Shown one piece after another: positions 24,923 through 63,452 of a stretch of 64,000 bases of DNA. Position numbers and translations under genes: made by a program. The DNA comes from Ginglymostoma cirratum. Lineage: Eukaryota. The notes beneath the pieces are model-generated. The model searched no databases. It was not told where the DNA came from and worked only from the letters and a program-made list of their open reading frames with translations. The stretch spans positions 52,211,260 through 52,275,259 of the forward strand of contig JAHRHZ010000018.1 of the NCBI GenBank assembly GCA_024137785.1. Reading direction: 5' to 3'. How positions within the stretch are numbered: position 1 is the first letter of the stretch; each line of letters starts with the position of its first letter.

Positions 24923-25021
24923 AAAAACAAAGTTGCTGGAAAAGGTCAGCAGATCTGGCAGCATCTGTCAAGGAAAAAACCCAGAGTTAATGTTTCGGGT
25001 CCGGTGACCCTTCCTCAGAAC
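24923..25021 (-). mobile_element. 99-bp PLE terminal-repeat insertion (family B) with a 13-bp TSD
   Basis: TGCAATGTGAAAT at 24910-24922 and 25022-25034; similar to the repeats at 48730-48865, 49285-49380 and 52392-52490. Confidence 0.85.
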
Positions 25022-25022
25022 T
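24985..25022 (-). ncRNA. Minimal type I hammerhead ribozyme-like motif (family B)
   Basis: agtt-CTGAGGA-a-GGGTC-accg-GACCC-GAAA-ca-TT-aact: core boxes, 5-bp stem II, 4-bp stem I; the ACGT palindrome has decayed to ACAT. Confidence 0.6.
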
Positions 25023-25132
25023 GCAATGTGAAATGACTGACTGAAATTGGTCACATCCACCAATGCAGTGTACTTTGTAGTTAAATCAACAACTTGATTC
25101 TTGGGCTTCACTCCCTCTTTTTGTTTTTAATA

Positions 25133-25463
25133 AATCCCTGCTGTGTGTGGAAACAGGCCATTTGGCCCAACAAGTCCACACCAACTCACCAAAGAGCATC
25201 CTACCTAGACTCATCCCCTACCCTATCAGCCTGCATTTCCCATGGATAATCCACCTAACCTACAAATCCCTGGACCCATTGGGCAATTTAGCATGACCAA
25301 TCCACCTAACCTGCACATCTTTGGCTGTGGGATGAAACCACAACATCCAAAGAAACCCACACAGACATGGGGAGAATGTGTGAAGTCCAAACAGACAGTC
25401 ACCGGAGGTTGGGATTGAAGCCAGGTCCCTGGTGCTGTGAGACAGCAGTGCAAATCACTGTGC
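25133..25463 (-). mobile_element. HE1-type V-SINE
   Basis: Reverse complement of the family seen at 23661-23936. Confidence 0.85.
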
Positions 25464-25630
25464 TGTTCCATATTAATGTACATCTGAAATCTTCACACAA
25501 CAATTCATAAACTGCAGCATAACCACAGCAAAAAAATTCTCATTAGGCTTAAAAAATACATGAAAGTATCAACATAAGAGCATGTTATAGAAACTTGCAC
25601 TAAATAGCTAAGACAGTAGAACACATGTCA

Positions 25631-25664
25631 TTTCTGATGAAGGGTCTAGGCCCGAAACGTCAAG
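25631..25664 (+). ncRNA. Minimal type I hammerhead ribozyme motif (family A)
   Basis: ttt-CTGATGA-a-GGGTCTAGGCCC-GAAA-CG-TC-aag; predicted GUC cleavage after 25661. Confidence 0.7.
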
Positions 25665-25727
25665 CTTTCCTGCTCCTATGATGCTGCTTGGCCTGCTGTG
25701 TTCATCCAGCTCCACACCTTGTTATCT
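25632..25727 (+). mobile_element. 96-bp PLE terminal-repeat insertion (family A) with a 10-bp TSD
   Basis: CACATGTCAT at 25622-25631 and 25728-25737; body nearly identical to the PLE terminus at 27143-27237. Confidence 0.88.
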
Positions 25728-26142
25728 CACATGTCATGTGTGTTCTGCCTGAAGGTTGCTTTGGCTCATTGTCTGCTTATGCTACATCTTGAACTGTTTT
25801 CTCAATGCTGTTTGTCAATGGTGGTTTGCCACAGTTTTCCACTGTCAGGAGTAGGGTGAGAAAGCAGGGCTCATGTCAATCTCAATCAGAACAGGAATTA
25901 AACACATATCGTTTGCATTATTCTAAACCACATGATAACCATCTAGCCAATTGGGTTAAACATTCCCCCACTCCCCAAATCCCCAGCCGTACCCAGGACC
26001 TCCCCCACAATGTACCCACCGCCATTGGCCACGAGGCCACTGTCAGAGAACCCACTGATGACGTCACATCCGCCACCGCCGGGCACCCCACTTCCGGGAC
26101 AGCAAACGCCGCAACTGCTGAAACCACCGCCTCCATCACCGA

Positions 26143-26889
26143 AACCACGCCCTCGACCGTGTCTCCCACATTTCCCGGAACACATCCCTCACGCCCCGTC
26201 CCCGCAACAATAACCAAAAAAGAATCCCCCTCGTCCTCACATACCACCCCACCAACCTCCGGATCCAACGCATCATCCTCCGACACTTCCGCCATCTGCA
26301 ATCAGACCCCACCACCAAAGACATTTTTCCCTCCCCACCCTTATCTGCCTTCCGGAGGGACCACTCCCTCCGTGACTCCCTTGTCCGCTCCACACTCCCC
26401 TCCAGCCCCACCACACCCGGCACTTTTCCTTGTAACCGCAGGAAGTGCTACAACTGCCCCCACACCTCCTCCCTCACCCCAATCCCAGGCCCCAAGAAGA
26501 CTTTCCACATCAGGCAGAGGTTCACCTGCACATCTGCCAATGTGGTATACTGCATCCGCTGTACCCGTTGTGGCTTCCTCTACATCGGAGAAACCAAGCG
26601 GAGGCTTGGGGACCGCTTTGCAGAACACCTGCGCTCAGTTCGCAACAAACAACTGCACCTCCCAGTCGCGAACCATTTCAACTCCCCCTCCCATTCCTCA
26701 GATGACATGTCCATCCTTGGCCTCCTGCAATGCCACAGTGATGCCACCCGAAGGCTGCAGGAACAGCAAATCATATTCAGCCTGGGAACCCTGCAGCCCA
26801 ATGGCATCAATGTGGATTTCACAAGCTTCAAAATCTCCCCTCCCCCAACCGCATCCCAAAACCAGCCCAGCTCATCTCCACCTCCCTAA
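26143..26889 (+). pseudogene. PLE ORF C-terminal part: RT-EN linker plus GIY-YIG endonuclease, uninterrupted frame but no start
   Basis: NHALDRVSHISRNTSL...RIPLVLTYHP...VVYCIRCTRCGFLYIGETKRRLGDRFAEH...PVANHFN...RRLQEQQIIFSLGTLQPNGINVDF; no stop between 26143 and 26886. Confidence 0.9.
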
Positions 26890-27140
26890 CCTGTTTTTCC
26901 TCTCACCTCAAGCCACACCTCCATCTCCTATCTACTAACATCATCCCGCCCCCTTGACCTGTCCGTCCTCCCTGGACTGACCTATCTCCTCCCTACCCCC
27001 CTACCTACACTCACCTTTCCTGGCTCCATCCCCGCCTCTTCGACTTGTCTGCCTCCTCTCCACCTATCCTCTCCTCTATCCATCCTCTATCCGCCTCCCC
27101 CTCTCTCCCTATTTATTTCAGAACCCTCTTCCCCTCCCCC

Positions 27141-27176
27141 ATTTCTGATGAAGGGTTTAGGCCCGAAACGTCAAGT
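27141..27176 (+). ncRNA. Minimal type I hammerhead ribozyme motif in the PLE terminal repeat
   Basis: attt-CTGATGA-a-GGGTTTAGGCCC-GAAA-CG-TC-aagt; stem I ATTT/AAGT; palindromic ACGT in place of stem III. Confidence 0.72.
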
Positions 27177-27805
27177 TTTCCTGCTCCTATGATGCTGCTT
27201 GACCTGCTGTGTTCATCCAGCCCCATGCTTGTTATCTCGGATTCTCCAGCATCTGCAGTACCTTTTATCTTTAATTAGCAACATGATGGTGTATAAATGT
27301 TAATTACCAAAAGGATCAACTACTATCAAAAAGCAAGCCTTAAATTATAGCAAACCAAGCAAAATATGAAAGACAGGAGGGGTAAATTCCTGTTCTAGAA
27401 CAAAGAGGACAGAAGTGAAATTCTTGAGAATGGTGAACTGTAGACCATCTAAGAAAAATATTAAAAATGAATGGCCAGAGGCACAATGCACTATGCCTGA
27501 GAATTCCTATATGGTGAATGCTAAAATTTGGTACTGCCTAATACCTTTCAGTGCTTAAACTACCTATGAGTTTGAAACAATAGGGATGGTGAGGAAGTAT
27601 TTGCTGGGTTGAACAATAATGCAATTCACTATTAATATACTAGAAAAAGTAGCAGTAAAACCTTTTTAACTGATGGACAAATAAACTTTGATAGACAATA
27701 TATTTCAGCTGGTATTACTTGGTAAGCAATTAAGGGCGCAAAAGGAAGAGCAAACAACATATTTCACTAGAATGTAGAATTTTATTCAATTCACAGTTCC
27801 ATTTC

Positions 27806-30800
27806 TGTGGTACTTGATAAAAGGACGATGCACCTGTTCCTCTTGATTTAGTCTAAGGGGAAATTTGGTTCACAGTGCCAGAGGAATAGCTGCAAGCGAG
27901 TCTTAACAAGAAGAAGCCTTTGTCTTAACAAGATCTAATACATTTTATGACAGCAAATAATTTACATTAGCCAGTGAGATATTGTTACTAAGACTGTTGG
28001 AAAATAGAGATAACACGAGACCCCAAGCTATTCTACTGATTTCCACACCCAAGACTATATGACATCATTAGATTAAGTGGAGCTTAATGCAGATCCTAAT
28101 ATTAACCCTTACAGAAAAACTACCTTGTAAAAAAATCTCCCCTCAGCCTTTTCCCCTTGTTGTTAATATTTATATATTTATGTATAACATTACATTTACC
28201 ACTATCCCATCTCCCCTCCAGTCTCTGATTTCACACATCTAACCAGTCATCAGACTTGAAAGAGTGTTAGGTCTTTAGCATGATGACTTTTGACCTTGAG
28301 TCAGATCATATTGTTAATTCTGATCTTGACTTTCCATCGTCTGCAGAATGTCCTTATTATGATGTTGCTCATTGGGTTTGCCTCAATCAATCATTGATGA
28401 ACAGTTTCTCTGTAAGGGAATAGGTTCCTGTCATTCCTCCATAAACCTCCGTCAGTTGTATGGACAAGGTGTAATTGCTGCTGGTCCACTGCCTCATGAA
28501 TGACCATGTTATTCCTTTTAAACCATGAAGCATGCTGATAGTTTATTATAATGAATAGCTTTCTGCTCCTAGTGAGACTATTCCTTCTTACAAACATTCT
28601 TATAGTTGGTAGACTCAACTGTGAAGTTGACTATTTGGTTTTCTACCCAGCAGTAATTCTGCTGGTGACAAGTCATGATGGAGTGGGGTGAACTAATAGT
28701 TTAACAAGGCTATTGAAATGTCAACATTTTTCTATAAAAGGAATTCAACTATCTGAACCCCATGCTCAACTTCTCCACTCAGCTGTGGCTATCACAGTGA
28801 GCTTGGTACATGTTCAAGCCCAGGGACTGGCTGCAAACTAGATGTAACTCATAAATAAATCATCTAATATGTGACACAAACTCATCAGGGATTCCATGTG
28901 TAGTGAATATTTCATGCAAAGCCCTGATAACAGCTTCTGATGTGATATATAACTTTTTCACCTCAGTCCAACAAGAATGGGTTTATCATGTAAACAGGTT
29001 CCCATTCATCCCCACAGTCTATTGGGGCTGGGAGTGGGGATCAGTCATTCTGTGCTTAGCCCTATGAATAGTGTAAATTTCACAGTCAGCTATGAGGTCC
29101 TCCAGCTCTTTTGTGATCCCTACACAGACAACCAAAACATGGCATTGCACTGGGTAATCTCCAAAAATCTAGGATATCTTGCCATGCAAGCTGGAATGAC
29201 CAGTCTTTAATCAAACACCAGCAAGTCGTCTGCAATTGTGAAACACTGTTGATGCTCAAAACAGGGCTTAATAACCAACCCAGAGATAGTAAGAACTGCC
29301 CATGCTGGAGTCAGAGATAACACAGTGTGGAGCTGGAGGAACACAGCGGTTGCAGAGAAAGGTGCCGGGGTGGTGGGGCTAGTGGGGAGTGTGGAGCAGA
29401 CGAGGGAGTTGCAGAGGTTAATAACCGATTATTAATAACGAATATTAATAACCAACCCAATGGGCCTATGGTCTGTCAACCTTCAATGCAATATCAATGA
29501 ATGCCAACACATTACCAGTTCTTCTTTTGTTTGATTGAGCACATTTTGGGTTGCTGACCACAGTACCACTATGACCTGAGTATATCATTCAATCTCATTA
29601 ACAAATCCCTCCTCACATGTTGTAAAGCTGTTAACTACCATCTGCAGCTTCACCTACATGCTTTGTTTCCAATGCCTCCCAATGCAAAACTAGAGTCAGA
29701 ATCTCTGTATTCAGGGAGCCAAATTTCCAAACACTTTCTCATCAAAAAGGGAGGCCAATATTTATGGTCCATTTCTATTAGCACTTTCAAGCGAAAGATA
29801 TACTTTGAAATCTTTCACATGCCCATGTGACCAAGAAAGCTGGTTTCTCTGTAATTGTGTAATGTGTCTCCATGTCTGACAATGCTTTGGAGACTTAATT
29901 CATCAGTTTCTAATGTCCATCCCATTGCTCCTGAAAGAGCACTACTCCTATGCCTTGAGCTAGGGCATTTTCAGCTAAGATACTTATTTGGATTGTATGG
30001 GCCAGAATGTCAGCATGTCCTTGATTTTTGGAAAGCATCTTCATGAAATGAGTTCCTGCACCATCCTTGTTGACTCAAGTGTTCAGTTGTAATTGCCTAG
30101 TGAGGCAAAACTTCACCAGCTAGTTTACAATGCCTAGAAATCTTGACAAATCATGAAATGATTTCCAGTTGGAAAACTGCTTAACAGCCTTAATTTTTTG
30201 AGGGTCTGACACAAATCCATTCTTATCAATGACATTTCCTAACAAGTGAATGGATCCCAAATGGCAGTCAATTGAAGCAAAATCATCCAAATGGAATGAT
30301 AAAGATACCATATATTTTTGATTGTTATCTAAAGGCATCTGTATAGTACCATTGGGTGGTGCTCCCTTGCTGTAGCCTCATTGAGCTCTGTTGCATCAAT
30401 GCATATTCTGATAGACCGTAGGATTTGGGTACAGTGACTACATCTGAACACCATTTGGCTGTGTCATGTGGGAATTAATGCCCTTTCTGATCATTTCCTC
30501 AAGTTGCTTCTGAACTTGATTCTAGAGAGAATGTTTCTGGATGCACAGAGACAAAGTTTAGCATCCTTCTTCAATGTGAAGCCATACTCAGCACTGCATT
30601 TCCCTCATTCTGTAAAGAATTTAGGCCAACTTTTCTTAAAAGCACTTTTATTCCTGCACTGTTCAACATTTTCACCTTTGAAGAAAACGGAAGGAAAAAT
30701 CTGCAATCTTGCTCAAGAGTGAGGTTTCTTCATTTTGAATTATGCATACATTATCCACCATCCGGCACCCTTTGTCCTCCCATGATAAGACAGTCCTTCT

Positions 30801-32727
30801 CTTGTCAGGATTTGACTGTTCTTCTTCCTGGTTTCTGCTTCTAGCACAATTTGAATAGTTTTCTCCAAAATCAAATATTCTTTGGACAGTAATAAATCTG
30901 CCAAAGGTCATCAATAAATCCAATATCAATTCTGTCTCTTATGAACGCTGTTTTCAAATCTCCATAACTAAATTTCCACTAATCTTTAGGGATCACATAT
31001 TAAATTTTTTATGGATTCCCTTGAATACCGAACTGTTCTGTTAAATCTTGCTTTCTTAAGATTTTTATTCATTTTCAGATTAAAGTAAATAGAATATAAT
31101 ATCTTTTATTGTCATAAGCAAATGTTAAAAGCTTGAAGATCTTCAGAATGTATATGCAACTTTAGTTATGTTTTGGTAATTGCTATTGAATGCAGTGTAT
31201 TTACTTTGCCTGCTTGTGATTTAATATTCAAGCTTCAAGCAGTTCTGTATCTTAAGGACTGTTTTCTCCAAGATGTCTAATTCTATATTCTATTTGGCTC
31301 ATCTCTCATATTTAATTTTGCAGGTAATATTATTTTTTCCACCATAGCTTCCTAATGTAATTATTTATTTTCTCCTTTAAATCTTTAATTTTGCAGTATC
31401 TCAATCTGCAGATGTAATTGCTATTCACGTCTGAAAATAGCAATTTTATTTTCTTTCTCTAAGGAATTTAATTCTGTTAAATAGTAGTTTTGCATCATTG
31501 TATTGCTTACTGGGGGTTTTCCTGGGTTTTTGCAGTCAAAATGGAGATTTCACATCTTCTCATAGTCAAAAATGATTATTTCCCACCCTTCTTGGCCTAA
31601 TAAAAAATGCAGCTTTTTTTCTCCAAATAAAGCCTTGTGCCTGAGGTGTTAATGAATTTTTCATGGCAGAATCACAGTTTAAATTATAGATCACCTGCTC
31701 TAATCACACTCAAAGTTCTTGCAACTACCTTCCTCTGTTAGGCTGTTGGCTTTAGCTTTTAAATGATCACTTTTATGGTCTTAATTTCACTTTGCAACAT
31801 TCCTGCTACTACGACTTCCGTATAAAACACCGATGACCCTTGATTTTCCTACTCTATCTGTTCCTCTTGATATCCATTTACTATGGCAGTAATGTTATTG
31901 ATGAACTGTAAAAACCCCTATTTGTATTTCTAGCCTTCTCAGCCTGTATTTTGTACAAATAATTTAAAGGCTTCCCCCTTGACCAATAGGGATTTTTAAC
32001 TTTACTCATGAGATTTTGATACTTTCGTTTTCTGTCTGAATGGCTGACTGGAAATGCTCCAACAGATCCTCACTTCTTGACGAAATCTATAACTGTCAGG
32101 TATAACTACTCTTTAAGCTCTCTCTACTGCATACTGCTTCTTGTCATATCAGGTCTGAATTAATGTTTTTAGTCTGGAGTGCAGTTTCTCTCTTTTTGGT
32201 TTTTTCATGAGTTCCTGTTGCTTGCTTGTTAGTTAAAGAGCTTGCAACTGCTGATTGCCTGCATGAATACTTCCTAAAGCTAAAATACCCATCAAGTCTG
32301 TAAGGTTGTAAACTCATTTAATCTTATATAATTCCTTCACTTGGGCCTGATGGATTTTTTTCACAGCTGTACCTTCTGGTATTAAGCAATGACTCCCACT
32401 TTTGATGAATGTGTGATAGTTATGGTAAAAGGTTTCTGCCACCATTCGTCTTGCCTTGACTGAATTTAATATTTGGTTCACAGTAGGCAAGAATAATCAT
32501 TGGTGGGAAGATGCTTGCGTCTTCACAAGATTAAGCATTTTTATGATAGCAATTATGTACAAGTTACATTAGCCAATTAGGTATTATTACTATGATCACT
32601 GGGAAAGATAGACCACATACCTGTCTCCTTTAAGATCCAGAGTTATTCTCCGATTTCCCTACCGAAGATTGTATGACATCATTAGACTAGATGGAGCTTA
32701 ATTCAGTCATCAACATTAACTTTTTCA
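27806..32727 (-). mobile_element. Decayed Gypsy-type LTR retrotransposon with two diverged LTRs (~27806-28113 and ~32412-32727)
   Basis: The LTRs share tttggttcacagt, ttacattagcca and tatgacatcattaga...tggagcttaat. Internal RT/RNase H remnant LLGNVIDKNGFVSDPQKIKAVKQF...LSRFLGIVN lies within the ORF at 30120-30338. Confidence 0.75.
29283..29444 (-). mobile_element. Short deleted PLE insertion inside the Gypsy element, 15-bp TSD
   Basis: TTAATAACCAACCCA at 29268-29282 and 29445-29459; PLE terminal repeat end joined to a fragment of the PLE linker region. Confidence 0.8.
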
Positions 32728-33227
32728 GGGCCATTAACTTATACAACAATTTCAAAATAATATCTTAAATTCCTGTCCGTTGTCTACGTCTTAAATTTTA
32801 CTTTGGACCAAAGTGTGCAGTGTGAAGTCTGTACATGAATTTGGATACACATAGTGTTCTACATGCCCCAACTTATTAGCTTCCTGGGAAAATAAGCTTT
32901 TATAAAGGAAACTTCCATATTTGCTTTAACGTGCTTACCAACATAAAGGAAGGTCTAATGAGTAGTTTTTGACAATTAAGTAAAGCTATCAATCAAAAAA
33001 TAGCTTTCAAATATTCATAGGTTCCCTAACAAGTCAGCAGCAAAACAATTCATAATTAGGATATACTTAGACTGAGTGAATCGTATTTGCAGAACCTTTA
33101 ATTAAACAAAGCAAGACCATTTGCTGATCTAAGCAATTGATGACCTGATAAAAATCAAGTACTTTCATCACTTGGCTGGAATTGACAACTATTTCCACAT
33201 TTTTCTTCAGGCCTTTGACAACATCAG

Positions 33228-33392: not shown

Positions 33393-35499
33393 CATATTGA
33401 GTTTGAGAGCCACATTTAGCACAAGATAGGCAAAGTTAGAACACTCTGGAAGAAGACTAAGACAATCTAGTCTGGAACTTGACACTAAACAAAACCAGAC
33501 TACAACACGTACACAAGAAGAAGGTAGATTAACACTCACTTAATGTAACTTTAAGTCAGAGACTTGTATACTTATAATTGCCATGCATAACAATGTTTAG
33601 TATTAATGTATAATGAATAATTTTACTTTGTAGTCTAAGATCATAGGCAGTTCTTTGCCTTTTCTTTGATCATTCTGACATATTACCAAATTCATAGTAT
33701 GGCATCAAACCACACGACAGAAGATAGAACTGTGGGATGCATTGCCTAGGAAATTGTGGCAACAGTGAAGATCATGAAAGAGACCCAAAATTGTCTAGAG
33801 AAGTGAGGTATTTTTAAATTTTTTTTTCAAGGAATTGTTGTTACAGCTTTAAGGCTAGCTAGGAGCTCCAAGGGAAAAAGCCTCAGAGCTCAGCAGCTGC
33901 TGTAAAGGAAACATTCCTGGACAGAAATTTCCGTCAGAGAAACCATCAGAATACTGTTAGCATCAAATATAAAATCAAAAGTCGTGGTGAAACTCGGCAG
34001 GTCTGTCGTCAGCTGTGCAGACAGAAACAAAGTCAATGTTTCGAGTCCAATGATTCTACCTCAGAATTTCTTCATAAGTGCCAAAAAGCCTGTTATAGCC
34101 AGCAGTAGAGGAAACAAGCTTTTAAGAAGACAGTGAGAGCATAAAAATTCACTAATAGCTAAGGGAACAAATCCAAATTGAATACCTATGTAAAGAGGCA
34201 AATTCTCAGACATCCAAAGTAGATTTGATCTCTTCATGGAAGGAACAAAGAATTTTAATTTCCATGTGAAAAACAAGGCTGCAAAGTCAAGTCAAGATTT
34301 CTACAGAGAGTTAATAAATTTCCAAACTATTTGCTCAATGACAAATTTAACAATAGCAATTTAAGATGATTTTTCTGTTTAAAGAACATGATTGCAAAAG
34401 GAAAATAAAATCAATAGTAAAAGTTGCTGTTGTTTTTCAAAGTATCAGTGAAGATAATGACGCCTCTAAAATTTCAATGATTTGAATGACAAATTCAAAG
34501 TTTTATTCAACAAATAAGTAATTTTATCAATTTTATTATATAAAATATGAAAAGATGATAAAGAAATATTTTGCAAGCCTGATCATGTGGTCTTGAATTC
34601 ACTCCAAAATACCTCAGACACAGAAAAAATTGGAGCCAACGATGTCAGAGAAGTTATCTTTGATACAAACAAAACACTTTCAAATCATATTGAAGCCATT
34701 TTGCTAAGTTTCTGCCTATAGACCTTTGGGAAATCCTTCAGACATCTTAAAAAGGAATATTTTCAATTCACCTCTATGAAGAAGCCATACTGTAAAAGAC
34801 AAACTGAAATTTATTGAAATCATCATTTAAAACAGCATAAACTTTCAGAACTTTCAGTTTTAGTACAACAACAATATTCATTACAAAATAAAGATTCGAC
34901 AGCTTTAATCGACAAATATACCAAGGTAACAAAATGAGTGTAGCACAAAGAGATCAAAATCATAATATTCATCTTCCAAATGAAGAAAATAATTAACAAG
35001 TTCAAGGTCCTATCAACAATGAACCAATACAAAAAAAAATTGATACAGGTCTTTCCACCAGAAAAATTCAAATTTTTGATCCATTTGATAGGTCAACAAA
35101 TTAGCATTTGTGGAAAGCACAATTCCTAAGTTTACAAAATGTTTCAGCACTGGAAACCAAATTCAATACAGAATTGGTTAGCACACTTCTCTGTATATGG
35201 GAAAAATGTCAGATCACGTGCTGTAAAGACAACGGATCAGTATGGAACAAATTGAAATTTGACAACTTCATAACTGGTTTTGATCAATAGTTCACTTCAA
35301 AAGCAAATAAGGCACTGGTGAAATCATGCCTCAATAATGCGTATAACCTCCAGGAGTGTCTCTAGACAATACATTCAGGTCATTAATGAAATAATCTGAA
35401 CCATGCAACCAGGAAAATCACAACAACAGCTCATTTGTAACAGCAAAGTTATTAGCTTCTTATACAAATCACTGAACTTCTTAAATCAAAAGAAGAAAT

Positions 35500-36585
35500 C
35501 AAAATACCTTGGAACCTCGAAATCTGAAATGGAAATAGAAAATGGTATAGAGACTCAAGAGGTTTGGCAGCATCTGTGGAGAGAGAAACTGAGTCCAGTA
35601 TGAGACTTCTCCAGACACAATTATTTGGAGCTCCATGGAAGAGTCATGTTGAACTTGAAGTGTTAACTCTATTTCTGTCTATAGATGTTGCCAGACCTGC
35701 GGGATTTTTTTCACTTTCTGTTTTTGTTATGTGTATTCATATCTTTGAACAAAACCTTGAAGAATAGGTTAACACTGCAAGAGAACAAGCTTAACATGAA
35801 AAAGAACAACACATCAATGGACTACTTCATTTTTCCTAGGGGAAGCAAAAGAGGATCTCACTCTAGCATAAGCAATCCAAACTGCAGTGGTTTGGTGCAG
35901 AATCTAAGGAGCTGTTCAAGAAGCAATTTATGCAAAAGTTCAATTGAATGCAAAACATTCTACAAAATATGTTGTCTCCTTAAAGCACAGACAGGGGAAA
36001 CAGACCTCTCATCTGAACAATATACCACATGTGACACACCATCAGCACAAATGCCAAAGCAATCTAATGCTACTGCATCTTGTCCCTGCTGAGGTTCCAA
36101 AAGCCCACATCAGCAAAGACAAAATTGTTCAGCCTTCCACTGACTACTCATTGTAACAAAAATAAGCCACTTCTAGGAGATATGCTATAGTCTGAAAAAC
36201 TAAACAATAAATTAAATCATTCACAAATCGACATGTATATTAATGTAAAAGCAAAATACCATGGAACATGAAAATCTGAAATGAAAATAGAAAATGCTGT
36301 AGAGACTCAGGAGGTCTGGCAGCATCTATTGAGAGAGAAACAGAATTAACATTTCAAGTCCAGCTTCTCCAGAACACAATTATTTGGACCTGTAAAGAAG
36401 AGTCTTATTGGATTTTAAGTGTTAACTCTGTTTCTCTCCACAGATGCTGCCAGACCGATTGCTTCCTTCAGCACTTTCTGTTGTTATTATGTGTATTTGT
36501 GCCTTGGAACAATACCTTAAAGAATAGATTAACAGTACAAGAGAACAACACACATCAATGGATTACTTCATTTTTTCTAGGGAAG
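35500..36585. repeat. Old local duplication (~35500-35845 and ~36250-36585), each copy with an inverted pair of PLE termini plus shared flank
   Basis: Shared acacaattatttgga spacer, aagaatag(g/a)ttaaca and acacatcaatgga(c/t)tacttcattttt...ctaggg. Confidence 0.8.
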
Positions 36586-36901: not shown

Positions 36902-37990
36902 TGTTAAGCAATGTTTATGACAGGGAAAGATGATTGTCCATGGGTGTTGTGTAACAATATCAGGACCCTGGAGCAACCTTGCAATGATCCCACTGAGTAT
37001 AAATGCCACAGAGTGGGTAGGGTTAGAACTTTCTGAAAGAAGGCTTCCACAGTCTCGTATGGAACTCAGTACAAGATCAGACTCTAACATGGGGATGAAT
37101 GCATGAAGAAGATAGATTATGTAATGTGACAATAAGTCAACGTTTGTTATGTCTAATGATTCCCAAGTATAGCAGCATTTAGTATTAACACATAACAAAT
37201 ATTGTTGTGTTGTCAAGCAACCATGGACTCAAAATTGGACATTCTAATTTGATGCACAGCCAGAGAAATCAGGCCTGACCAAAAACTGACCAAACGATAT
37301 CAAACTGCAGCCAGCAGCTATCGGCTACAGAGAATGAAGGAATTCAAGATCAAAGAGGTTACAAAAGTTGAAGGAAAACCAATTACAATCAGCCTGAGGG
37401 TTATGTATTGGAGAAGTGTCAATCAGATGTTATGGCACCTTTACTATCTGTGTATGTACACTTTACATCTCTCCGCATAGCAACACCATTGGATGATTTG
37501 AACCCAGTTCATGACCCCATTGGCCACAAAACATTTCGAAGGGCCTGTGTAAGGTGGGGGGATTGGGGAAATCAATGAAGACTCAGTGAACACTTGCAGG
37601 GAAGACTCACAGCAAGACTCCAGGCGGAAAACCATTCAGCGATTCGAGAAGACCCAGGAGAAAATTTGCCCTGACCTGTGAGACCTATCTTCATGGAGGA
37701 GAGCCAGTCCTTTTTCAAGAGGAAGGATATTTCAACAGCCCAGCTCAAACATGTGGATTGTTGCGAGTTATATCTTTTCTCAGATGGACAGAGTTAGGTA
37801 CAGACTAAATATTATAGGAATTTGGGAAATACCGAGTTGGTGTTTTTAATGTGGAATGTTTTTGTTAATAAAACTAAGTTGAACCACAAACCAAATTTTG
37901 TGTTCCTTTGTTCTGCCTCACTAACAAGAGCGCTCAGGTAAGGTATTTTTAACACAGAAACTGTTCAAAGGTCCCAATGCACAGACAACA
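36902..37990 (+). mobile_element. Probable 5' LTR of the retrovirus-like element (left boundary uncertain)
   Basis: AATAAA at 37867-37872, ends ...ACAACA at 37990, followed by a PBS-like TGGCATCGTGGATTGG at 37992 and then gag-like sequence. Confidence 0.55.
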
Positions 37991-50489: not shown

Positions 50490-51354
50490 ATAACAAGCAT
50501 GGGGCTGGATGAACACAGCAGGTCAAGCAGCATCATAGGAGCAGGAAAACTTGACGTTTCGGGCCTAAACCCTTCATCAACACAAGCCCTCCTCCTGGAC
50601 ACCACCCCAAGGCCTCCTACCCTCCCTCGACCTCTTCATCTCCAACTGCCGTCGAGACATCAATCGCCTCAACCTCTCTACCCCTCTCAAACACTCCAAC
50701 CTCTCCCCCGCAGAACGTGCAGCCCTCCACTCCCTCCGCTCCAATCCCAACCTCACCATAAAACCTGCGGACAAGGGAGGGCAGTCGTAGTATGGCACAC
50801 TGACCTCTACATTGCTGAGGCCAGGCGCCAACTCTCTGACACCTCCTCCTACCGCCCCCTGGATCATGACCCCACCCCCGAGCACCAAACCATCATCTCC
50901 CAAACCATCCACAACCTCATCACCTCAGGTGACCTCCCACCCACCGCCTCCAACCTCATCGTTCCCCAACCCCGCACCGCCCGCTTCTATCTCCTCCCCA
51001 AAATCCACAAACCTGAATGCCCTGGTCGACCCATTGTCTCCGCCTGCTCCTGCCCCACCGAACTCATCTCCACCTACCTACACTCCATTTTCACCCCCTT
51101 GGTCCAGGAACTCCCTACCTATGTCCGTGACACCACCCACGCCCTCCACCTCCTCCAGAACTTCCAATTCCCCTGTCCCCAGCACCTCATTTTTACTATG
51201 GACGTCCAGTCCCTAAAAAAGCATTTCTGATGAAGGGTTTAGGCCCGAAACGTCAAGTTTTCCTGCTCCTATGATGCTGCTTGACCTGCTGTGTTCATCC
51301 AGCCCCATGCTTGTTATCTCGGATTCTCCAGCATCTGCAGTACCTTTTATCTCG
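50490..51354 (+). mobile_element. Young PLE insertion: inverted terminal repeat + N-terminal RT fragment + direct terminal repeat, 14-bp TSD
   Basis: RT motifs IKPADKG, FYLLPKIHK, GRPIVS and FTMDVQSL (50581-51214); the two arms are identical over 90 nt; AGTACTTTGATATA at 50479-50492 and 51355-51368. Confidence 0.92.
51223..51258 (+). ncRNA. Minimal type I hammerhead ribozyme motif
   Basis: Identical to 27141-27176. Confidence 0.72.
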
Positions 51355-51929
51355 AGTACTTTGATATATGTGTATGCACAGTTCTGCTGCTTACTAGCCC
51401 TTATCTTTTCAATTCTACCTCTGTGGGTACAATTATCACATCCTCATAATATCTCCACGTACTTCAGAAGCAATTAAATGTCTTTTAAATGCAGTTACCA
51501 TTATGGGTGTAAACCAACAGCCAATTCCTCACACTGAGTCCATAAAAAATGGCAAATGAGATAAATAATCATCTGGTTTCTCCAACTGTCGCTTTAAGCC
51601 TGCTCACCTTCATTATTTCTCTTTTATCATGTAATTTAAACCCACTCTGAGTTTGTTATTATGACAGACTGGTCAAGGTGAAGGTAAGGTCAAGAACTTT
51701 CTTTGGGCTTAGACTTCAAAGCCACTGTTGTCTGTGCTTTGAACATTTCGAACAGTTTATGTATTAAAACACTTTACCCAAATGCAGGTGTCAATGAGGC
51801 AGACGACTCAGTTCAACTTGATTCTTCATTAAAAATACTATGTCAGCATTTCCCAAATTCCCACAATATTTACTCTCGATCTAGCTCTATTTGTCTGAGA
51901 AAAGTCATGACCAGTAACAATCCACCTGT

Positions 51930-54900
51930 TTGAGCTGGATGATTGGAATCTCCTTCCTCTCCAGTGTAGGGCTGGCTCTCTTCCAAAAAGGTGGGTCTTG
52001 CAGGTCAGACCAGATCTTTGTCTGGGTCTTCTGCCTTAATTCGTGCTGCAGGTTTTCCCTGCGAGTTGTCACTAAGTCTTTGCTGAGTCTTCATTGATCC
52101 TTCCTCACAACTTCCAGAACGTTCTGTAGCTTTTGGCCAATGGGGTCATATGCTGGGTTCAAATCATCCAATGGAGTCGCACTAATACCTTTCACTGTAG
52201 CCATTCCCAGAGGCAGAAGTGCGCATCCTCAGGTACTCAAGTTGCCAGAATGTCTGATTGACAATACAATACACTCAGCTGGTTATAATTGGTTCCCCTT
52301 GAACCTTTGTAACCTCTTTGACCTTGGTTCCACTGTTCTCTGTAACTAATAACTCATGCCTGCTGTTTAATTTAGTTTGACCTCAGAACTTTTCTGAGGA
52401 AGGGTCACCGGACCTGAAATGTTAACTCTGTTTTCTCCTCCACAGATGCTGCCAGACCGGCTGAGCTTTTCCAGCAACTTTGTTTTTGTTGCTTCACCAC
52501 AGTCTCTCCTGTGGATTCCTGTACATTTTCTAAAAGACGTTTCACAGTTTTCTTGTGGCAGAGGGTTTCAACCTCGGGCTCTGTCAAGTCCAGTCCTCTC
52601 ACGAGGTGTCTGCTTGTTAGAACGTGAGGGGGTGTTCAATCCATTTGAACTGAAGGGGAGTTCCTTATGACCATGAGGACAAAGGGTAAAACTATGTTCC
52701 TACTGCTTTGCTGGAAGATCTTTTGCAGCGTCCCTTTGAGGGTTTCCTTCATCCTCTCTACAATCCCACTGGATTGAGGATGGAAGGTGACATGGAACCT
52801 TTGGCTGGCACTAAATATATCCATCATTTCGTGCATTACCTAGGCTGTGAAATGGGTTCCCTGGTCTGAATCTGTACTACAGAGAAGCCTCCATCTAGTG
52901 AAAACATGCTGAATTAAGATATTTACTGCAACTTTAGTGGTGTCTGTTTGAATGAGGATCATCTCTATCCGTTTGCTAAAAATGTCCATGATGGCCTGGA
53001 TATATTTATGTCCCTTTTACAGGATGATAGGGGCCAACATTGTCTATTTCAAGAATAATCCACAGTCCTGCTACTGACCTGATTTGCCTTAACTCTCCTT
53101 TATTGGCAAACTTATTTAGATTAACATGGGCACAGTTAATACAATTCTTGATGTAATGTTTTATGTTGTTTCCCATTCCTGGCCATCAACACAATCCTGC
53201 AATTTTGCCAGTTGTGGCTTCTGTCGCTCGATGATTCTGGATTCACAGTATTGATAAATCACTTGATTTCAGTTATGGACTGCTATCATTTACCGCCCAT
53301 CTTTGAGAACAAATCTGAACTGAGTACTTAACCTGTTCTCCCATGTGCTTTATGAGATGGGTATCATTCCCTCCTGTACTTGCTTTAACGCAGCATCGCT
53401 GCTCTCAGCCTGTCCCAGATCTTTGACCTTGGTTTGGTCCGCAGCGATGGTAACTATTTGTTCTGGAACGGGGGGCTGCCATGTTTTTCCTTTGTGGGCA
53501 TCCTGCTGAGCCAATTCATCTGTCCATATGTCCCCAGCTGGGGAGGCACTAGCTTTAATGATGCCATATTTGTGGCATTGGGCATTTTGGAGAATAAATT
53601 TGAGCAGGGGTGTTTACGGTAATGGTTTCCTGTCTGCTGAGATGAATCCTCTACCTTCCCACAGTGACAGGAAGTGATTTCAACTGTTGCAGACATACGT
53701 GCTGTCTGAGTATCTGTCTGCTGGTGGGGGGATATTTTTCAGGGTGGCTGACCATGTAGATTCCAGCTGCTAGTGCTTATTTTGTTGGGAAGCTTCAGCA
53801 CTAACAGTATCAGAGGTTCCCCTCTGTGGTCCTCCAAATATACATTACATCCTGTCTTTCAGTCTCCATCCTCTACCGAAGAGCATCTGTCTGTTAATAT
53901 TCTTCTGGGGGTCCTCTCATTTGTTCCCAGGTTCCCTTGGGTCTTCCTCCCAGTTTATTTTGACACAGATAGTCCCTTGGGGACTTTTGTTGCCACTACC
54001 TGACACTCATGGGATTTTCCTCCGTAGCTCATATTCTTGGCGAGCAAGGTGGGCACTTTGGTACATTTGTCTATAATGTCGCGACCCTGTAACAATAGGT
54101 TCTGACAGTATCCCATTAAACCCAGAAAGGGACACAATGAGCGCACATTCCTGGGGGAGGGGCAAACGGATTATGGCTTTGATGCACTATTTCATGTTTC
54201 CCCCGGGCTGTTACAGTTTCTAAGTATGAGAGCTGGATCCTCATGATCTGTGCATTCTTGGGGTTAACTTTCAGTCCTGAGGGTGAATAGTTCCTTTTAC
54301 ACTGTTAACTAAATGTTTGGTCCTTGTACCTGTCCACATACCATACCAAGCAGTCTGGTCAGGAAACCTTCTCTAACCCTTTAGGCAGTGTCTGATAAAA
54401 TATTGATGGAGAATTGTGGATACCCTGCGACAAGCAGGTCCATGTGTATTGCTGACTCTGAAATGTGAAGATGAATTTATATTGTCAGTATCGGTGAAGG
54501 AGGGCCGGACTAAAATCCTTAACTAGTGTCTAGTATGGCGAAATATTTTGCTCATGAGGCCTGCCTCATCATGGTTTCAGGGCTAGTCACTACTGTTGGT
54601 GCAGTGATTGTGGTGTTTTATTGAGTTCCCTGTAATCAATGGTGGGCTGTCAAGAGCCGTCTGGTTTCTTAACTGGCCATACTAATGAGTTATTAGTCGA
54701 CATCGACGCTACAGGGTCTAGGACTCCTTGTTTTAACAAGCTGCTAATGACCTTGGCCACGTTCTCCTCTGCCTGCTTGGGGAATGTGTATTGTTTTTGT
54801 GGCTTTGGGTCCTGTCCGTCTATCATTACCTCACCATCTATAGGACCGCAGTTGTGTTTGTTACTGATGAACACTTGTGCTCTGTGAGAGTTTCCTGTGC

Positions 54901-55595: not shown

Positions 55596-57000
55596 AGACC
55601 AAAGAGCATCTTTCACTGAGTTGATGGCCCTCCAGGTGCAGTCAATGTTTGTCTTGGTGTGCGTCCTGGGGAACAGACCGTAGAGCACTGAGCCCTACAA
55701 CACAGAACTGCTCTGGATAAACCTCAACAAAAATCATTGCATCACTGTCCAGGCTTCCTTTGCAAAAGCACATTACAGCAGGACATGTGTGACATTCTTT
55801 ATCCTGCCTCCATAGCCACTTCAACGGCAGCGTGTGGTGACAGAAAGAGCCCACTCATACATGAAGGATCTCACAGGTAATGTCCTTCTGACCACCAGCC
55901 AAATGATGTCTTGGTGCTTGTTGGAAAGTCCTCTTTTGTGGAGGTGGCACAGTGGCTCAGTGCTGCCTCACAGCACCAGGGACCCAGGTTCAATTCCACC
56001 CTTGGGCAACTGTCTGTGTGGAGTTCACACATTCTCCCTGTGTCTGTGTGAGTTTCCTCCAGGTGCTCTGGTTTCCTCCCACAGTCCAAAGATGTGCAGG
56101 CTAGGTGGATTGGTTATGTGAAATTGCCTATAGTGTTCAGGGATGTGTAGATTAGGTGGGTTATAGGGGGATGGGTGTGGGTGGGATGTTCTGAGGGTCA
56201 GTGTGGACTAGTTGGGCCAAAGTGCCTGTTTCCACCCTGGAGGGATTCTTTGAATCCTAGTGATGAGGCATTATGCCAAATGGCTTTAATAGTCTGTTCA
56301 AGGAACCATGCAACAGGATCCACCCTCTCCTTTTCCCTCAGGGTGTTGAGGATGCTATGTGCTGACCATTTCCCGATGGACTTGTGGTCAAAGATGTTTT
56401 TTTAAATAAATTTCACCACAAAGGACAGGTGATGTGGAATGGTTCAACTATTTGGAGTGTTCCGTAACTTTGAATCCAGTCTCTGCCTCACCTTGGTGAA
56501 ATGCTTCTTCCAAGTTTTTGCGTACGGCGAGGCTCCTCCAACCCATATTCCCAGTACCTTCAGGTAATCTGTCCTGAGGGTGAAACGGATAAAGGATTGA
56601 TCAGCCCAGATCCTAAAAGAACATGACCTCACCCTTGCCTCAAAGTACCTTGGCTCCCGAGGCCAGTTTGAACTGGCCGCGTATAGAAATGATTCTGCAC
56701 ACTAAAGACTGATCCGAGCAGAAAACAGCGAAGCCATCCACGTACTGGGAGGTTTTGATCTGCAGGCCTCTGCTACCTTGTACAGTTACCCCTCTCAGGC
56801 TCACATCCTTCCTGATGGACTCAGCAAAAGGCTCTATAGAGCACACAAAGAAGGCAGGATAGAATGGGCAGCCCTACCTGGCTCCAAATCTGATCAGGAA
56901 ACTTTTTGATTCCCACCCGTTGATTGAGGGTGCACATATTGGGCTGATTCCCTCCCCAGATTCCATTTTGGAGAACATGTCCCACATTAAACTTTCTCCA
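55596..57000 (-). mobile_element. Tx1-clade (L1 group) LINE ORF2 fragment, interrupted by an HE1 SINE
   Basis: CSIEPFAESIRKDVSLRGVTVQGSRGLQIKTSQYVDG, YLKVLGIW, LPVRSFMY...THVLL*CAFAKEAW and INSVKDALWS. Confidence 0.82.
55943..56256 (+). mobile_element. HE1-type V-SINE
   Basis: tRNA-like head, V-domain and tail as at 23661. Confidence 0.88.
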
Positions 57001-59090: not shown

Positions 59091-59988
59091 CTGAGATAAC
59101 AAGGTGTAAAGCTGGATGACAGCAGGCCAAGCAGCAGCAGAGGAGCAGGACGGCTGACGTTTCGGGCCTAGACCCTTCTTCAGAAATGGAGGAGGAGAAG
59201 GGGGTTCTGAAATAAATAGGGAGAGAGGGGGAGGCGGATAGAAGATGGATAGAGGAGGAGATAGGTGGAGAGGAGACAGACAGGTCAAAGAGGCGGGGAT
59301 GGAGCCAGTAAAGGTGAGTGTAGGTGGGGAGGAGATAGGTCAGTCCAGGGAGGACGGACAGGTCAAGGGGGCGGGATGAGGTTAGTAGGTAGGAGATGAG
59401 GTTGGGGCTAGAGGTGGGAGGAGGGAATAGGTGGGAGGAAGGACAGGTTAGGGAGGCGGGGACGAGCTGGGCTGGTTTTGGGATGTGGTAGGGGGAGGGG
59501 AGATTTTGAAGCTTGTGAAGTCCACATTGATACCATTGGGCTGCAGGGTTCCCAAGCGGAATATGAGTTGCTGTTCCCGCAACCTTCGGGCGGCATCGTT
59601 GTGGCACTGCAGGAGGCCCAGGCATGTCGTCTGAGGAATGGGAGGGGGAGTTGAAATGGTTCGCGACTGGAAGGTGCAGTTGTTTAGTGCGAACCGAGCA
59701 TAGGTGTTCTGCAAAGCGGTCTCCAAGCCTCCACTTGGTTTTCCCGATGTAGAGGAGGCCACAACGGGAACAGCGGATGCAGTTTCCCACATTAGCAGAT
59801 GTGCAGGTGAACATCTGCTTGATGCGAAAAGTCTTCTTGGGGCCTGGCATAGGAGTGAGGGGGGAGGTGTAGGGGCAGGTGTAACGTTTCCTGCGGTTGC
59901 AGGGACAAGTGCCAAGTGTGGTGGGGCTGGAGGGGAGTGTGGAGTGGACAAGGCACTTGTCCCTGCAACCGCAGGAAATGTTATACCT
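59091..59988 (-). mobile_element. 5'-truncated Penelope-like element (GIY-YIG + terminal repeat) with a short fold-back at its 5' end
   Basis: CIRCSRCGLLYIGKTKWRLGDRFAEH...PVANHFN; hammerhead motif at 59153-59187; 59952-59988 is an inverted copy of 59877-59913. Confidence 0.9.
59153..59187 (-). ncRNA. Minimal hammerhead ribozyme motif
   Basis: attt-CTGAAGA-a-GGGTCTAGGCCC-GAAA-CG-TC-agc. Confidence 0.62.
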
Positions 59989-60019
59989 ACAACTATGCTT
60001 CTAGTTTAGAATAAGTATT

Positions 60020-60608: not shown

Positions 60609-60844
60609 AAATGTTAAAACTTCTATGTAAGATGCTGGACATACAGCTGACCAAAAATGAACAATGACTGCAGAGTGCTATATATGGCATTTATAGGCAT
60701 TAAGGAAAAATAACACTTTGTCTGGTAGCCCCTCAACAAGGAAGGCTTCATTGGTTGTATGTCAGTAGTTGTCTTTAGAACAAGATCTGAACAGACAATC
60801 ACAACAGAGAGCAAGCCATTCATTTCACTTCAACAGAAGATTCA

Positions 60845-61204
60845 CAGAATCCTGACAGTGTGCAAACAAGCTATTTGGCCCATTGTATCCACACCAATCC
60901 TCTGAAGGGCATCCCACCCAGACCCACCCTCCCCTACCCTATCCCCGTAACCCTGCATTTCCCCTAGCTAATCCACCTAGTTTACACATTCCTGGACACT
61001 ATGGGCAATTTAGTATGGCCAATCCACCTAACCTGCACATCTTTGGACATCTTTGTGGGAGAAAACCAGAGCACCCGGAGGAAATCCACACAGACATGGG
61101 GAGAATGTGCAAACTCCACGCAGACAATCACCCAAGGCTGGAATCAGACCCAGGTCCCTGGCCCTGTGAGGCAACAGTGCTAACCACTGAGCCGCCATGC
61201 TGCC
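60845..61204 (-). mobile_element. HE1-type V-SINE, full length
   Basis: Reverse strand begins ggcagcatggcggctcagtggttagcactgttgcctcacagggccagggacctgggt, followed by the V-domain and tail. Confidence 0.9.
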
Positions 61205-61502
61205 CATGTTTGATAAATAGTTTTGGCAGTTTTTTTGAAATTGCCACCATATCCAATGAGCAGGTGCCCAGAAAAGCACAACATTAAGAGTTCCTCCATC
61301 AAGCAGGAGAGAGGAGAAGGGGCAGTTTGCACACAGGGGTCAGGGATTCATAAAGTACACACACTGCAGTATGTATGTACAAATTCAAATAAAAATCTTT
61401 GAAGAAATAGTTATTCATAAAACTTATTATTTACAAGAAATCACTATAATAATTAATTCTGATTATTAGTCAGTTGTGAAAAAGAAGCAACAATTGTATT
61501 CC

Positions 61503-61591
61503 TTAGAAGGGTTTAGGCCTGAAACGTCAAGTTTTCCTGCTCCTATGATGCTGCTTGACCTGCTGTGTTCATCCAGCCCCATGCTTGTTGT
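61503..61591 (+). mobile_element. 89-bp PLE terminal-repeat insertion (family A) with a 15-bp TSD
   Basis: CAACAATTGTATTCC at 61488-61502 and 61592-61606; starts inside the hammerhead core. Confidence 0.88.
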
Positions 61592-62259
61592 CAACAATTG
61601 TATTCCATCTGAATGGATGGGAAAAAGAATCATTAATATGAAGCAAACGAAATAAAACTGATAACTTCAACTACTGGTTATTAAAGACAGTGTCAATATG
61701 AATCAGAAAGGTGACTTGGGAATTGAGCTATCTGTAGAAATAGCAGGTAATTGTGGTCCAGTATTTCCTTAAATACATTACTGCTTGTATATTGTGCATT
61801 TTGTATGTTTTTAATTATCTTATAGTATTATTTCAAATTATTATATCACAACAATTAGAAGTGCAGGGATAATAAATTAATTTCTGAAACTTTCAACTAA
61901 TTTATTCCTCTGTGTGGCTGCAGTACTTGAGGGGAATACATTTTCATTTACAATGCATAATAAAGCTAAAACTCAAACCCTCTGTCTGAGCCACATGTAT
62001 TCCATAAAGTGAGGAGAACACTATTTATTCTATTTCACACAGAAATTGTTGCTGCTTTTATGAATTGTCTTTCTTTAAAATTGTTAACACAGATCAAATC
62101 ATAACTTTGAAACAAATATTTTATGTAAATTAATTTTCTTGACTTTTTTTTCCCCTCATTGTTCATTTTTGTTTTGTAACCTCTTTTCTTGGCTGTGATA
62201 GTTTTCCAATCACAGTTCCAACTTGGCAAGGTAAGCTGAGTTCTGTTTTAACACTTTTT

Positions 62260-62560
62260 TGACAGTTAGCAATTTGAATCCTTGTTTATAATCCCTCCAT
62301 GGCTCTGGTCTTCTTTATTTTTGTAACCTCCTCCAGCCCCATAGCACCCAAAGTATCTGTACTCTGATCTAATTGTGGCCCCTTGAGCATTCCCAATTTT
62401 AATCACCTCGTCACTGACTTTGGCTGTGAAGGCTCAAAACTCCGGAATTTTCTCCCTAAATCTCTCCAGCTCTCAACATTTCCTTTCTCCTTTAAGATGG
62501 TCCTTGAAATGTTGTTCTCCTTTGACCAAGCAGATGGCCACCCAATCTGATATTGCTTTT
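62260..62560 (+). mobile_element. L2 LINE 3' fragment
   Basis: tccctccatggc...tgtaacctcctccagccc...ctccggaattttctccctaaatctctcc...tcctttaagatggtccttgaaa...ctttgaccaagc. Confidence 0.65.
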
Positions 62561-62720
62561 GGCTGCGATTTATGGCCCCTGATGGCATAATTGAAGGTGG
62601 AGGGTGCTCACAAAATTAACTGGGTGGTCTTTCCATTGTCTTCTTTCGCACTCCTGGCTGTCTCCCACATTAGAGTGGGCAGGGAAGCCAGCAGCCAGTC
62701 TGCCCATCTTTAGGTCTGTT

Positions 62721-62807
62721 GAGATAACAAGGTGTAGAGCTGGATGAACACAGCAGGCCAAACAGCATCATAGGAGCAGGAAAGCTGACGTTTCGGGCCT
62801 AGACCCT
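62721..62807 (-). mobile_element. PLE terminal-repeat fragment (family A)
   Basis: Reverse complement of the 25641-25728 type repeat; truncated at hammerhead stem II. Confidence 0.82.
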
Positions 62808-63254
62808 GTGGCAAATTACTGGATTCTTAAAGACTTAATTCAGCCTCCACTGCTATTTTACATGCAGTAGGGGCACGTGAATGTAAGGCAGGGTAGTCTG
62901 GCAGTATTCACTGCATGGGTTACTTTCAAGCAAGCAGAGGAACCAATTCTAATAGAGCTAACAAGGTGTGGAGCTGAAGGAGTAGATCCTTCTGAAGAAG
63001 GCAGTTCCTACTATCTCGGAATTCAAATAGAGCCCTCTGTTCCCATTGGAAGCTGCCCCCCAAAATAAGAACCTCTTTAACCCTCAGCTATTCTCATTCA
63101 GTCCCACACCAGTCACACCCAGCCTAGGCTACCCGAAGTACCGAACTCACCTTAGATCCTGAGGAATACACCTCCACATAAAATCCAGCCCTTTATTCTT
63201 TGATAACATTCCTTTGAAACATCTTATTATTTTAAAAGCGCTATATAAATTCAA

Positions 63255-63452
63255 CAGGCCAGGCAGCATGAGAGTAGCAGGAAAGTTGACGTTTCGGCTC
63301 AGGAACCTTCTTCAGAAAAGGGTCCCTTCTGAAGAAGGGTCCTGACCCGAAACGTCAGCTTTCCTGCTACTCTCATGCTGCCTGGCCTGCTGTGTTCCTC
63401 CAGTTCCACACTCTATTATCTCTGACTCCAACATCGGCAGTTCTTACTATCC
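63255..63452. mobile_element. 198-bp palindromic PLE-derived insertion (head-to-head terminal repeats), 14-bp TSD
   Basis: 63255-63317 pairs with 63327-63389; CTATATAAATTCAA at 63241-63254 and 63453-63466. Confidence 0.9.
63326..63360 (+). ncRNA. Minimal hammerhead ribozyme motif (a mutated mirror copy lies on the minus strand at ~63284-63318)
   Basis: tt-CTGAAGA-a-GGGT-cctg-ACCC-GAAA-CG-TC-ag; stem I is weak. Confidence 0.58.

Follow-up and report, generated by a model that had tools for sequence, protein, structure and literature searches.

The terminal repeats (pseudo-long terminal repeats, pLTRs) of metazoan Penelope-like elements (PLEs), among them Xena, Poseidon and Neptune of fishes, carry minimal type I hammerhead ribozymes (HHRs; Cervera and De la Pena, 2014, PMC4209133), a class with low reported self-cleavage activity in vitro (PMC4209133) and with members that act as dimers (reviewed in PMC6765202). 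Here, we analyzed 64,000 nucleotides from Ginglymostoma cirratum (GenBank assembly GCA_024137785.1, contig JAHRHZ010000018.1, positions 52,211,260 to 52,275,259, forward strand; this whole stretch is called the window), in which a previous sequence-only reading had noted a family of short, HHR-bearing mobile units and had proposed them to constitute a SINE-like (short interspersed element) or retrozyme-like class mobilized by Neptune PLEs. The inserts prove to consist of a 95-130-nt PLE terminal module, i.e., of the pLTR, in solo or inverted form, and their 5' ends cluster at the front edge of the HHR. We regard these stubs as probable by-products rather than as a new class of elements.

Like the motifs reported in PMC4209133, those of the window combine the HHR core with an extra nucleotide after A9, a G10.1-C11.1 pair and a palindromic tetramer, and they are mostly single and dispersed (ascribed there to truncated PLEs), with some opposite-strand pairs 100-700 bp apart; stem II has 4-5 bp here vs. 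7-8 in Schistosoma. The accessible text of that study mentions neither sharks nor target-site duplications (TSDs) of solo motifs nor a fixed 5' edge. With endonuclease-containing (EN+) PLEs the insertions share head-to-head arms, a one-sided tail of ~33 nt, TSDs, palindromic seams, solo pLTRs and a CX2-5CxxC linker before a C-terminal GIY-YIG endonuclease (PMC8557442; PMC3846280). Unlike in the EN+ PLEs described there, most insertions here consist of a pLTR only and lie very close together (17 events within 44 kb), while the TSDs measure 9-15 bp vs. 8-10 bp in Adineta (PMC3846280). Solo minimal HHRs, opposite-strand pairs, inverted pLTRs, one-sided tails and solo pLTRs are thus already on record as such (PMC4209133; PMC8557442; PMC3846280). 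Features comparable to those of Poseidon PAc from Anolis carolinensis (Frangieh, 2024, PMC11167929) are two reverse transcriptase (RT) start sites bracketing the tail, priming of both strands, AT-rich targets, the absence of ends at the HHR cut and an uncleaved RNA as presumed template. PAc belongs to a different clade, and its RT starts lie in an AC-rich stem-loop within the open reading frame (ORF), whereas the two sites here are rich in U and the HHRs of the families share no conserved ORF start. Non-LTR retrozymes, reported in one chondrichthyan with a mean consensus of 363 bp, are also protein-free, carry a type I HHR and are related to PLE pLTRs, but they consist of tandemly repeated units that each carry an HHR, and they are expressed as circles (PMC7229834; bioRxiv 10.64898/2026.07.22.740005), whereas the window has single or inverted units whose ends are not cut sites.

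A profile search (nhmmer, profile built from 12 window pieces) yielded 24 hits, all of them beyond base 20000 (none in bases 1-20000), which we interpret as 22 arms from 17 insertion events and thus as more copies than listed before. For this count, doublets were split into arms, a duplicate at 35.5k/36.2k was taken as one event and the pieces at 49.4-50.05k were joined. Offsets are counted from C3 of the HHR core (27145 = 0), so that the first base past the predicted cut is +28. The best-preserved coding copy and the four inserts originally named are the following:

26122-26889, + strand: 3' part of the PLE ORF, with a CX4CxxC linker (26431) and a GIY-YIG endonuclease (Pfam PF01541, E 8e-6, above cut-off)
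27141-27176, + strand: intact minimal type I hammerhead at the terminus of this coding copy, predicted cut after 27172
27177-27270, + strand: remainder of the pLTR module, with the short 3' site at ~27238 and a ~33-nt tail (27239-27270)
24923-25021, - strand: solo pLTR stub of family A, start at -5..-3, short 3' site, tetramer decayed, exact 13-bp TSD (24910-24922/25022-25034)
25632-25727, + strand: solo pLTR stub of family B, intact strict minimal HHR with core at 25634, start at -5..-2 (3-nt overlap with the TSD), short 3' site, exact 10-bp TSD (25622-25631/25728-25737)
61503-61591, + strand: solo stub truncated within the HHR core, start at +5, short end, exact 15-bp TSD (61488-61502/61592-61606)
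63255-63452, both strands: inverted doublet of family D, - arm (about 63255-63318) from -3 to ~+60, + arm (63327-63452) from -2 to the tail end, exact 14-bp TSD (63241-63254/63453-63466)

The longest direct repeat around 300 random 100-bp intervals, searched with the same slop, was 9 bp, and the target duplications of 10-15 bp claimed for these inserts are therefore borne out. All four are flanked by TSDs as separate, protein-free insertions, with the correction that 63255-63452 is a head-to-head pair of arms and not a single unit. The TSDs are richer in AT than their surroundings (72% vs. 58%). At the coding copy, which probably starts near 25960, the ORF with linker and GIY-YIG domain is followed by a pyrimidine-rich 3' untranslated region (UTR) and then by the pLTR module. 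Compared with its end, there are no differences over 90-92 nt in the copies at 50.5k and 51.2k and one in 84 nt at 61.5k.

The 5' ends carry the main finding. Twelve of the 22 arms start between -5 and +7 (the starts of 61503 and of the 63k minus arm were placed by TSD or seam, the others by the aligner), the interval from -17 to about -400 contains no starts, and none of the well-preserved arms begins at the ribozyme cut (+28); the boundary is the front edge of the ribozyme and not its cut. The smooth length distribution expected for randomly truncated PLEs is absent: under the most favorable constant-hazard model of truncation (at most 0.087 per arm) the clustering has P = 5e-8, or 1e-6 when 20 placements of the counted interval are allowed for. 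The same edge appeared in public contigs of organism A, taken from two studies, in which the flanks at the junctions are diverse (agreement 0.38-0.42, median length 147-255 nt). In run X1 such flanks join at 27139, 27141 and 27142 (-6, -4 and -3) in 14, 15 and 30 contigs, respectively, and at 27142 in a further 15 contigs of run X2 and 40 of run X4, while among the junctions listed those in the 100 bases upstream have few contigs (1-2, with long flanks) or short, element-like flanks. All three long copies tested, from two families, have an initiator-like YYANWYY match with its +1 A at -4 (27141 in the 27k copy). We did not meet a fixed 5' edge in the published literature within an open-access search, outside which lie some supplements that may bear on this. 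An extra G at a few junctions (51222, two loose-end consensus rows and one joint) was considered as cap-derived and is not claimed, since this letter would also result from a head-to-head join at -5.

The remaining copies are:

20394-20461, - strand: weak, decayed family-A piece (nhmmer E 0.008)
29284-29420, - strand: tail-ended 3' piece of family D joined to a 73-bp piece of the ORF linker region, exact 9-bp TSD and micro-duplications
33965-34066, - strand: old family-A stub, start at -2, no convincing TSD
35496-35729, both strands: old inverted doublet that duplicates 36248-36494, with 83% identity across 352 columns when flank is included
36248-36494, both strands: old inverted doublet, - arm with tail and start at -3, + arm with short end
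41279-41360, - strand: decayed family-A piece, 5' end uncertain (+37 by the aligner)
48727-49383, both strands: inverted insertion, tailed - arm (48727-48876) with 5' end at -16, + arm (about 48880-49383) consisting of a decayed endonuclease end, 3' UTR and pLTR up to the short site; 14-bp TSD with 2 mismatches
49440-50050, + strand: old long copy comprising what is left of the endonuclease, the 3' UTR and a decayed pLTR, plus a tail-like piece (50014-50048)
50492-51352, both strands: inverted insertion with two arms around an RT fragment, 14-bp TSD
52392-52492, + strand: family-A stub, start at -2, with 7 nt of this start repeated in inverted orientation shortly upstream, no TSD found
59093-59990, - strand: long 5'-truncated copy with endonuclease, 3' UTR and pLTR to the short site, 5' fold-back, 86% identical to the 27k copy
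62721-62807, - strand: solo stub, start at +7, short end, no TSD found
62955-63017, both strands: minimal inverted doublet, a 22-nt short-end arm followed by an HHR start (-2..+9) joined to the tail end, 14-bp TSD with 1 mismatch

In the two better-preserved family groups the arms stop at either of two 3' sites, about +93 and +125 (~33 nt apart), both closed by a TATCT(C) motif, and behind 27270 diverse flanks join in 93, 94 and 455 contigs of runs X1, X2 and X18, respectively. The 33 nt between the two sites are the tail known from PLEs, which in Anolis Poseidon lies between two internal RT start sites (PMC11167929). This tail is present on one arm only in each of the five inverted pairs (36k, 48-49k, 50-51k, 62.9k and 63k; P 0.007-0.03), the tailless 63k arm stopping early near +60, while of the 12 single-arm inserts 9 extend to the short site only. 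The seams differ among all five independent doublets, and short inverted repeats, identified by eye, are visible at the seams of 52392, 62990 and 63327. In single X4 contigs the sequence jumps back from 27140 to 27180 in one and joins head-to-head at 27140 in another. In the 50-51k insertion the - arm (50492-50579, short end, start at +1) is followed by an RT fragment (50583-51212, from the DKG motif to MDV, frameshifted), seven letters foreign to the element, and the tailed + arm (51222-51352, start at -5), which is identical to 27140-27270 at 131 of 131 positions. Its two arms are identical across 90 nt, in contrast to the 63k doublet, the arms of which differ at 3 of 63 positions, all within the HHR and two of them converting stem II G-C into U-G; this hints at two template RNAs within one insertion event. 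The 8-nt spacer of the 63k doublet echoes letters of the stem II in its + arm.

With regard to the parent element, the window has a C-terminal GIY-YIG endonuclease with CCHH and an upstream linker of the CX2-5CxxC form, both features of EN+ PLEs, and further contains a PLE-type pLTR, the optional tail of 30-40 bp, inverted copies and TSDs. The PLE origin asserted by the sequence-only reading holds, the short arms matching the ends of coding copies, and a Neptune-type partner is supported by the CX4CxxC linker before the endonuclease, which excludes Penelope and Poseidon but not Nematis, as the CX2-5CxxC linker is common to Neptune and Nematis (PMC8557442). The RT is represented by the frameshifted 210-codon piece with its DKG motif, for which there is no Pfam match, and a PDB sequence search with the endonuclease piece gave no significant match. 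A very decayed PLE endonuclease remnant without recognizable pLTR lies at 41976-42812 (- strand; tblastn E 2e-12). The stretch coding for the Cys linker (26367-26439, 29346-29417 and 59874-59991) is the jump target at 29k and the 5' fold-back point at 59k, and is possibly a second RT pause or jump site.

The minimal HHR itself is real. The CUGANGA and GAAA core with extra nucleotide, stem II, palindromic 15.2-16.2 and stem I was found complete in three copies by a strict descriptor (core C at 25634, 27145 and 51227; no hits in 200 shuffles) and in eight by a loose one (no hits in 179 shuffles, one hit in 21), most other copies being truncated or decayed; the CTGANGA..GAAA pattern by itself is weakly above chance (14 vs. 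7.3; 3 of 100 shuffles). In the 27k copy, stem I (27141-44/27173-76) encloses the core (27145-51), the extra A, a 4-bp stem II and an ACGU tetramer, and the cut after GUC is predicted where it had been placed, after 27172. Among the four inserts named as carriers of the core it is intact in 25632 only: 24923 has lost the palindromic tetramer, 61503 lacks CUGA and the 5' strand of stem I, and in both 63k arms stem I pairs just 2 bp. Four stem II variants that differ and stay paired were confirmed (95.6% of cells paired). The switch of stem I from ATTT/AAGT to AGTT/AACT is present as well and amounts to one event between two families. Two-sided changes occur at two of the four stem II pairs, in one copy each (10 of 500 shuffles were as high, which is not a probability), and there is one one-sided change between families; with few independent events the covariation is suggestive but thin. 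Neither Rfam (no match to these motifs) nor a metagenome scan with a degenerate HHR pattern (0 loci) returned anything. Calculated fold energies, which leave out tertiary contacts and help by proteins, are -9.3 kcal/mol for the monomer minimum, in which the core is buried, vs. -3.4 kcal/mol, and -5.1 kcal/mol for the active dimer vs. -28.8 kcal/mol for the cofold minimum. Because a second copy is needed, the hammerhead of a lone stub is probably inactive. Whole units folded no better than shuffled ones (z -1.5 to +1.1), and a 7-bp helix between pLTR body and tail (82% paired in four copies, no two-sided change) is a lead only. An X4 contig has at 27140-27180 a 41-nt direct hammerhead repeat with a single G between the copies, a natural close tandem HHR.

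We consider it likely that the stubs are by-products of reverse transcription that started internally in the 5' pLTR and ran off the RNA start at the front edge of the HHR. The PLE enzyme would nick the target, a staggered double nick of 9-15 nt giving rise to the TSD, and a transcript starting at the first base of the hammerhead would carry one module at either end. If priming took place in the 5' module, the RT would meet the RNA end after 95 or 130 nt, yielding a solo stub with one target strand primed and a head-to-head doublet with both; priming in the 3' pLTR would produce long copies with variable truncation. The 5' boundary would be the transcription start, and most stubs would be dead ends. 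At 51222, the arm reaching to -5, the seven foreign letters and the RT-coding sequence are as expected if the RT met the template end and jumped. The enzyme of Anolis Poseidon cuts and extends both strands of the target and begins reverse transcription at the two internal sites, and with PAc in vitro the product length tracks the template 5' end while HHR cleavage is dispensable (PMC11167929). The promoter of Penelope is internal to the pLTR, with initiator and downstream promoter elements (PMC2377424).

Several observations weigh against this run-off scheme. No RNA 5' end was observed, as the runs consist of contigs, none on record as RNA, and the contig mappings have no places where many molecules begin. 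In D. virilis the front edge of the HHR is the 3' end of a 75-bp intron and transcription starts 46 bp upstream of that intron (PMC4209133; PMC2377424), so that the edge is not conserved as a start site. The window lacks a full-length element with two pLTRs, and 10 of the 22 arms lie outside the 5' cluster: one at -16, three decayed and uncertain ones (+23, +33 and +37 by the aligner), two very short ones (+57 and +69) and four long arms at about -400 to -1200. Eight events are without a convincing TSD, none having been found at the 27k, 59k, 34k, 41k, 52k and 62.7k copies. The junctions listed are 24 of 467 loose-end ones, and a DNA run from organism B (X13) has no edge junction among its six. 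Summed contig depth, which is not a copy number, increases not only at the edge but also, gradually, along the 3' UTR, and ordinary truncation therefore also occurs. Finally, the initiator consensus is weak, with 3-4 further matches in each upstream stretch.

That the stubs are in part a self-propagating, non-autonomous family, with tailed stubs and doublets transcribed from their own pLTR promoter or by read-through and re-copied in trans, appears possible and rather unlikely. Their discrete size and TSDs would fit, in Adineta pLTRs alone were enough to mobilize unrelated DNA (PMC3846280), Chlamys PLEs include non-autonomous ones (PMC8557442), and the subfamily of 24923 and 52392 has no long copy in the window. 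The sole hint that stubs give rise to stubs is the pair 35464-35845 and 36223-36585, where a doublet with one seam and ~110 bp of flank recurs at 83% identity 750 bp away, either as a local duplication or as a protein-free doublet that was re-copied; the 35.5k copy has a TSD-like match of 9/10 (2 of 1000 random placements were as good), whereas the alignment extends ~25 bp beyond the tail end, 11 placements were tried and local duplication fits equally. On the other hand, stubs of the youngest subfamily are 0-1 nt away from the coding-copy end, the independent doublets all have their own seams, and the tail is missing from 9 of the 12 single-arm inserts. As to the SINE-like part of the original proposal, no sense-strand RNA polymerase III A and B box pair was found in five units at up to one mismatch with the box consensus, a weak scan in that one of two SINE-like controls also lacks the pair and the other has doubtful pairs only.

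The 5' boundary could, with still less probability, be real and represent a splice junction, a stall or fold-back point of the RT or T-rich microhomology to AT-rich targets. In D. virilis helix I marks the end of the intron (PMC4209133), in family A the letters CAG immediately precede -2, the inverted repeats at three seams would suit folding back, and the commonest junction (-3) lies within a T run. Family B, however, has no AG at -4/-3, a common upstream exon is not seen (upstream letters differ, with agreement about 0.4), none of the 22 junctions falls into a more AT-rich stretch 25-37 nt upstream, and an RT would in general be expected to stall on the 3' side of a stem. If the two direct pLTRs of a complete insertion recombined, as proposed for some solo pLTRs of Adineta (PMC3846280), TSD-flanked units with a fixed start would likewise be left; such recombination leaves the inverted arms with the same edge, the jump into RT at 51222 and the starts at +1, +5 and +7 unexplained, ~100 bp is in general a short recombination target, and we regard it as very unlikely. 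Spread as retrozymes through ribozyme-cut monomers or circular RNA is hardly credible: a type I HHR is present, retrozymes have been argued to be pLTR-derived with dispersed monomers (bioRxiv 10.64898/2026.07.22.740005) and the X4 contig has its 41-nt tandem repeat, but the units are neither cut-to-cut nor permuted, no tandem HHR-bearing unit is among the 13 Tandem Repeats Finder rows of the window, and the HHR is minimal, not canonical, its active dimer being calculated as much less favorable than the cofold minimum. That the stubs are simply 3' ends with random 5' truncation, despite long truncated copies here and heavy 5' truncation known for PLEs (PMC8557442), is equally implausible given the probability calculated above and the sharp contig junctions.

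The claim of a SINE/retrozyme-like class is thus not supported, with no well-preserved arm starting at the cut, no tandem arrays in the window, no A and B box pair in the weak scan and arms that match the ends of coding copies. The units resemble non-autonomous PLE cargo in that the PLE enzyme inserts them, be it in trans or as by-products. Their family is highly abundant, with 10,986 to 117,788 contigs, which is not a copy number, covering 631 bases of it across four runs. A more far-reaching version of the run-off scheme, which we put forward as doubtful, would have the first HHR base as the PLE transcription start and the 130-nt module as promoter, ribozyme half and RT landing site at once, with run-off both regenerating the pLTR and littering very many stubs, tailed stubs and doublets being re-copied in trans as an RNA polymerase II-transcribed, ribozyme-headed SINE-like class, and doublet arms sometimes stemming from two RNAs.

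Outside the PLE copies, the window contains a BCL11A exon at 6104-6427 (- strand; E 4e-14 to PDB BCL11A peptides) and a run of N at 1059-1254, which is an assembly gap. A 300-350-bp repeat occurs four times (23652-23936, 25133-25463, 55943-56256 and 60839-61196) and resembles the shark HE1-type tRNA SINE. Two old dispersed repeat pairs were seen, 27910-28114 with 32507-32728 and, inverted and with about 69-76% identity, 37291-37995 with 51721-52379; the latter was tried as an empty site and rejected, as it stops short of the 52392 stub. Rfam hits resembling mir-92/mir-2004 at 59874-59991, below the gathering score, correspond to the 5' fold-back of the 59k PLE copy and not to a microRNA gene.

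As a ribozyme or as an element class the finding is ordinary, since dispersed minimal HHRs of PLE termini have been published and most copies here are broken. How PLEs rebuild their pLTRs and how inverted, one-tailed insertions arise is an acknowledged open question (PMC2377424; PMC11167929). The stub ends predict an RNA start at -4, RT starts at about +93 and +125 and uncut RNA as the template in vivo, and the abundant stubs with their fixed ends may be a fossil read-out of the rebuilding of the PLE pLTR.

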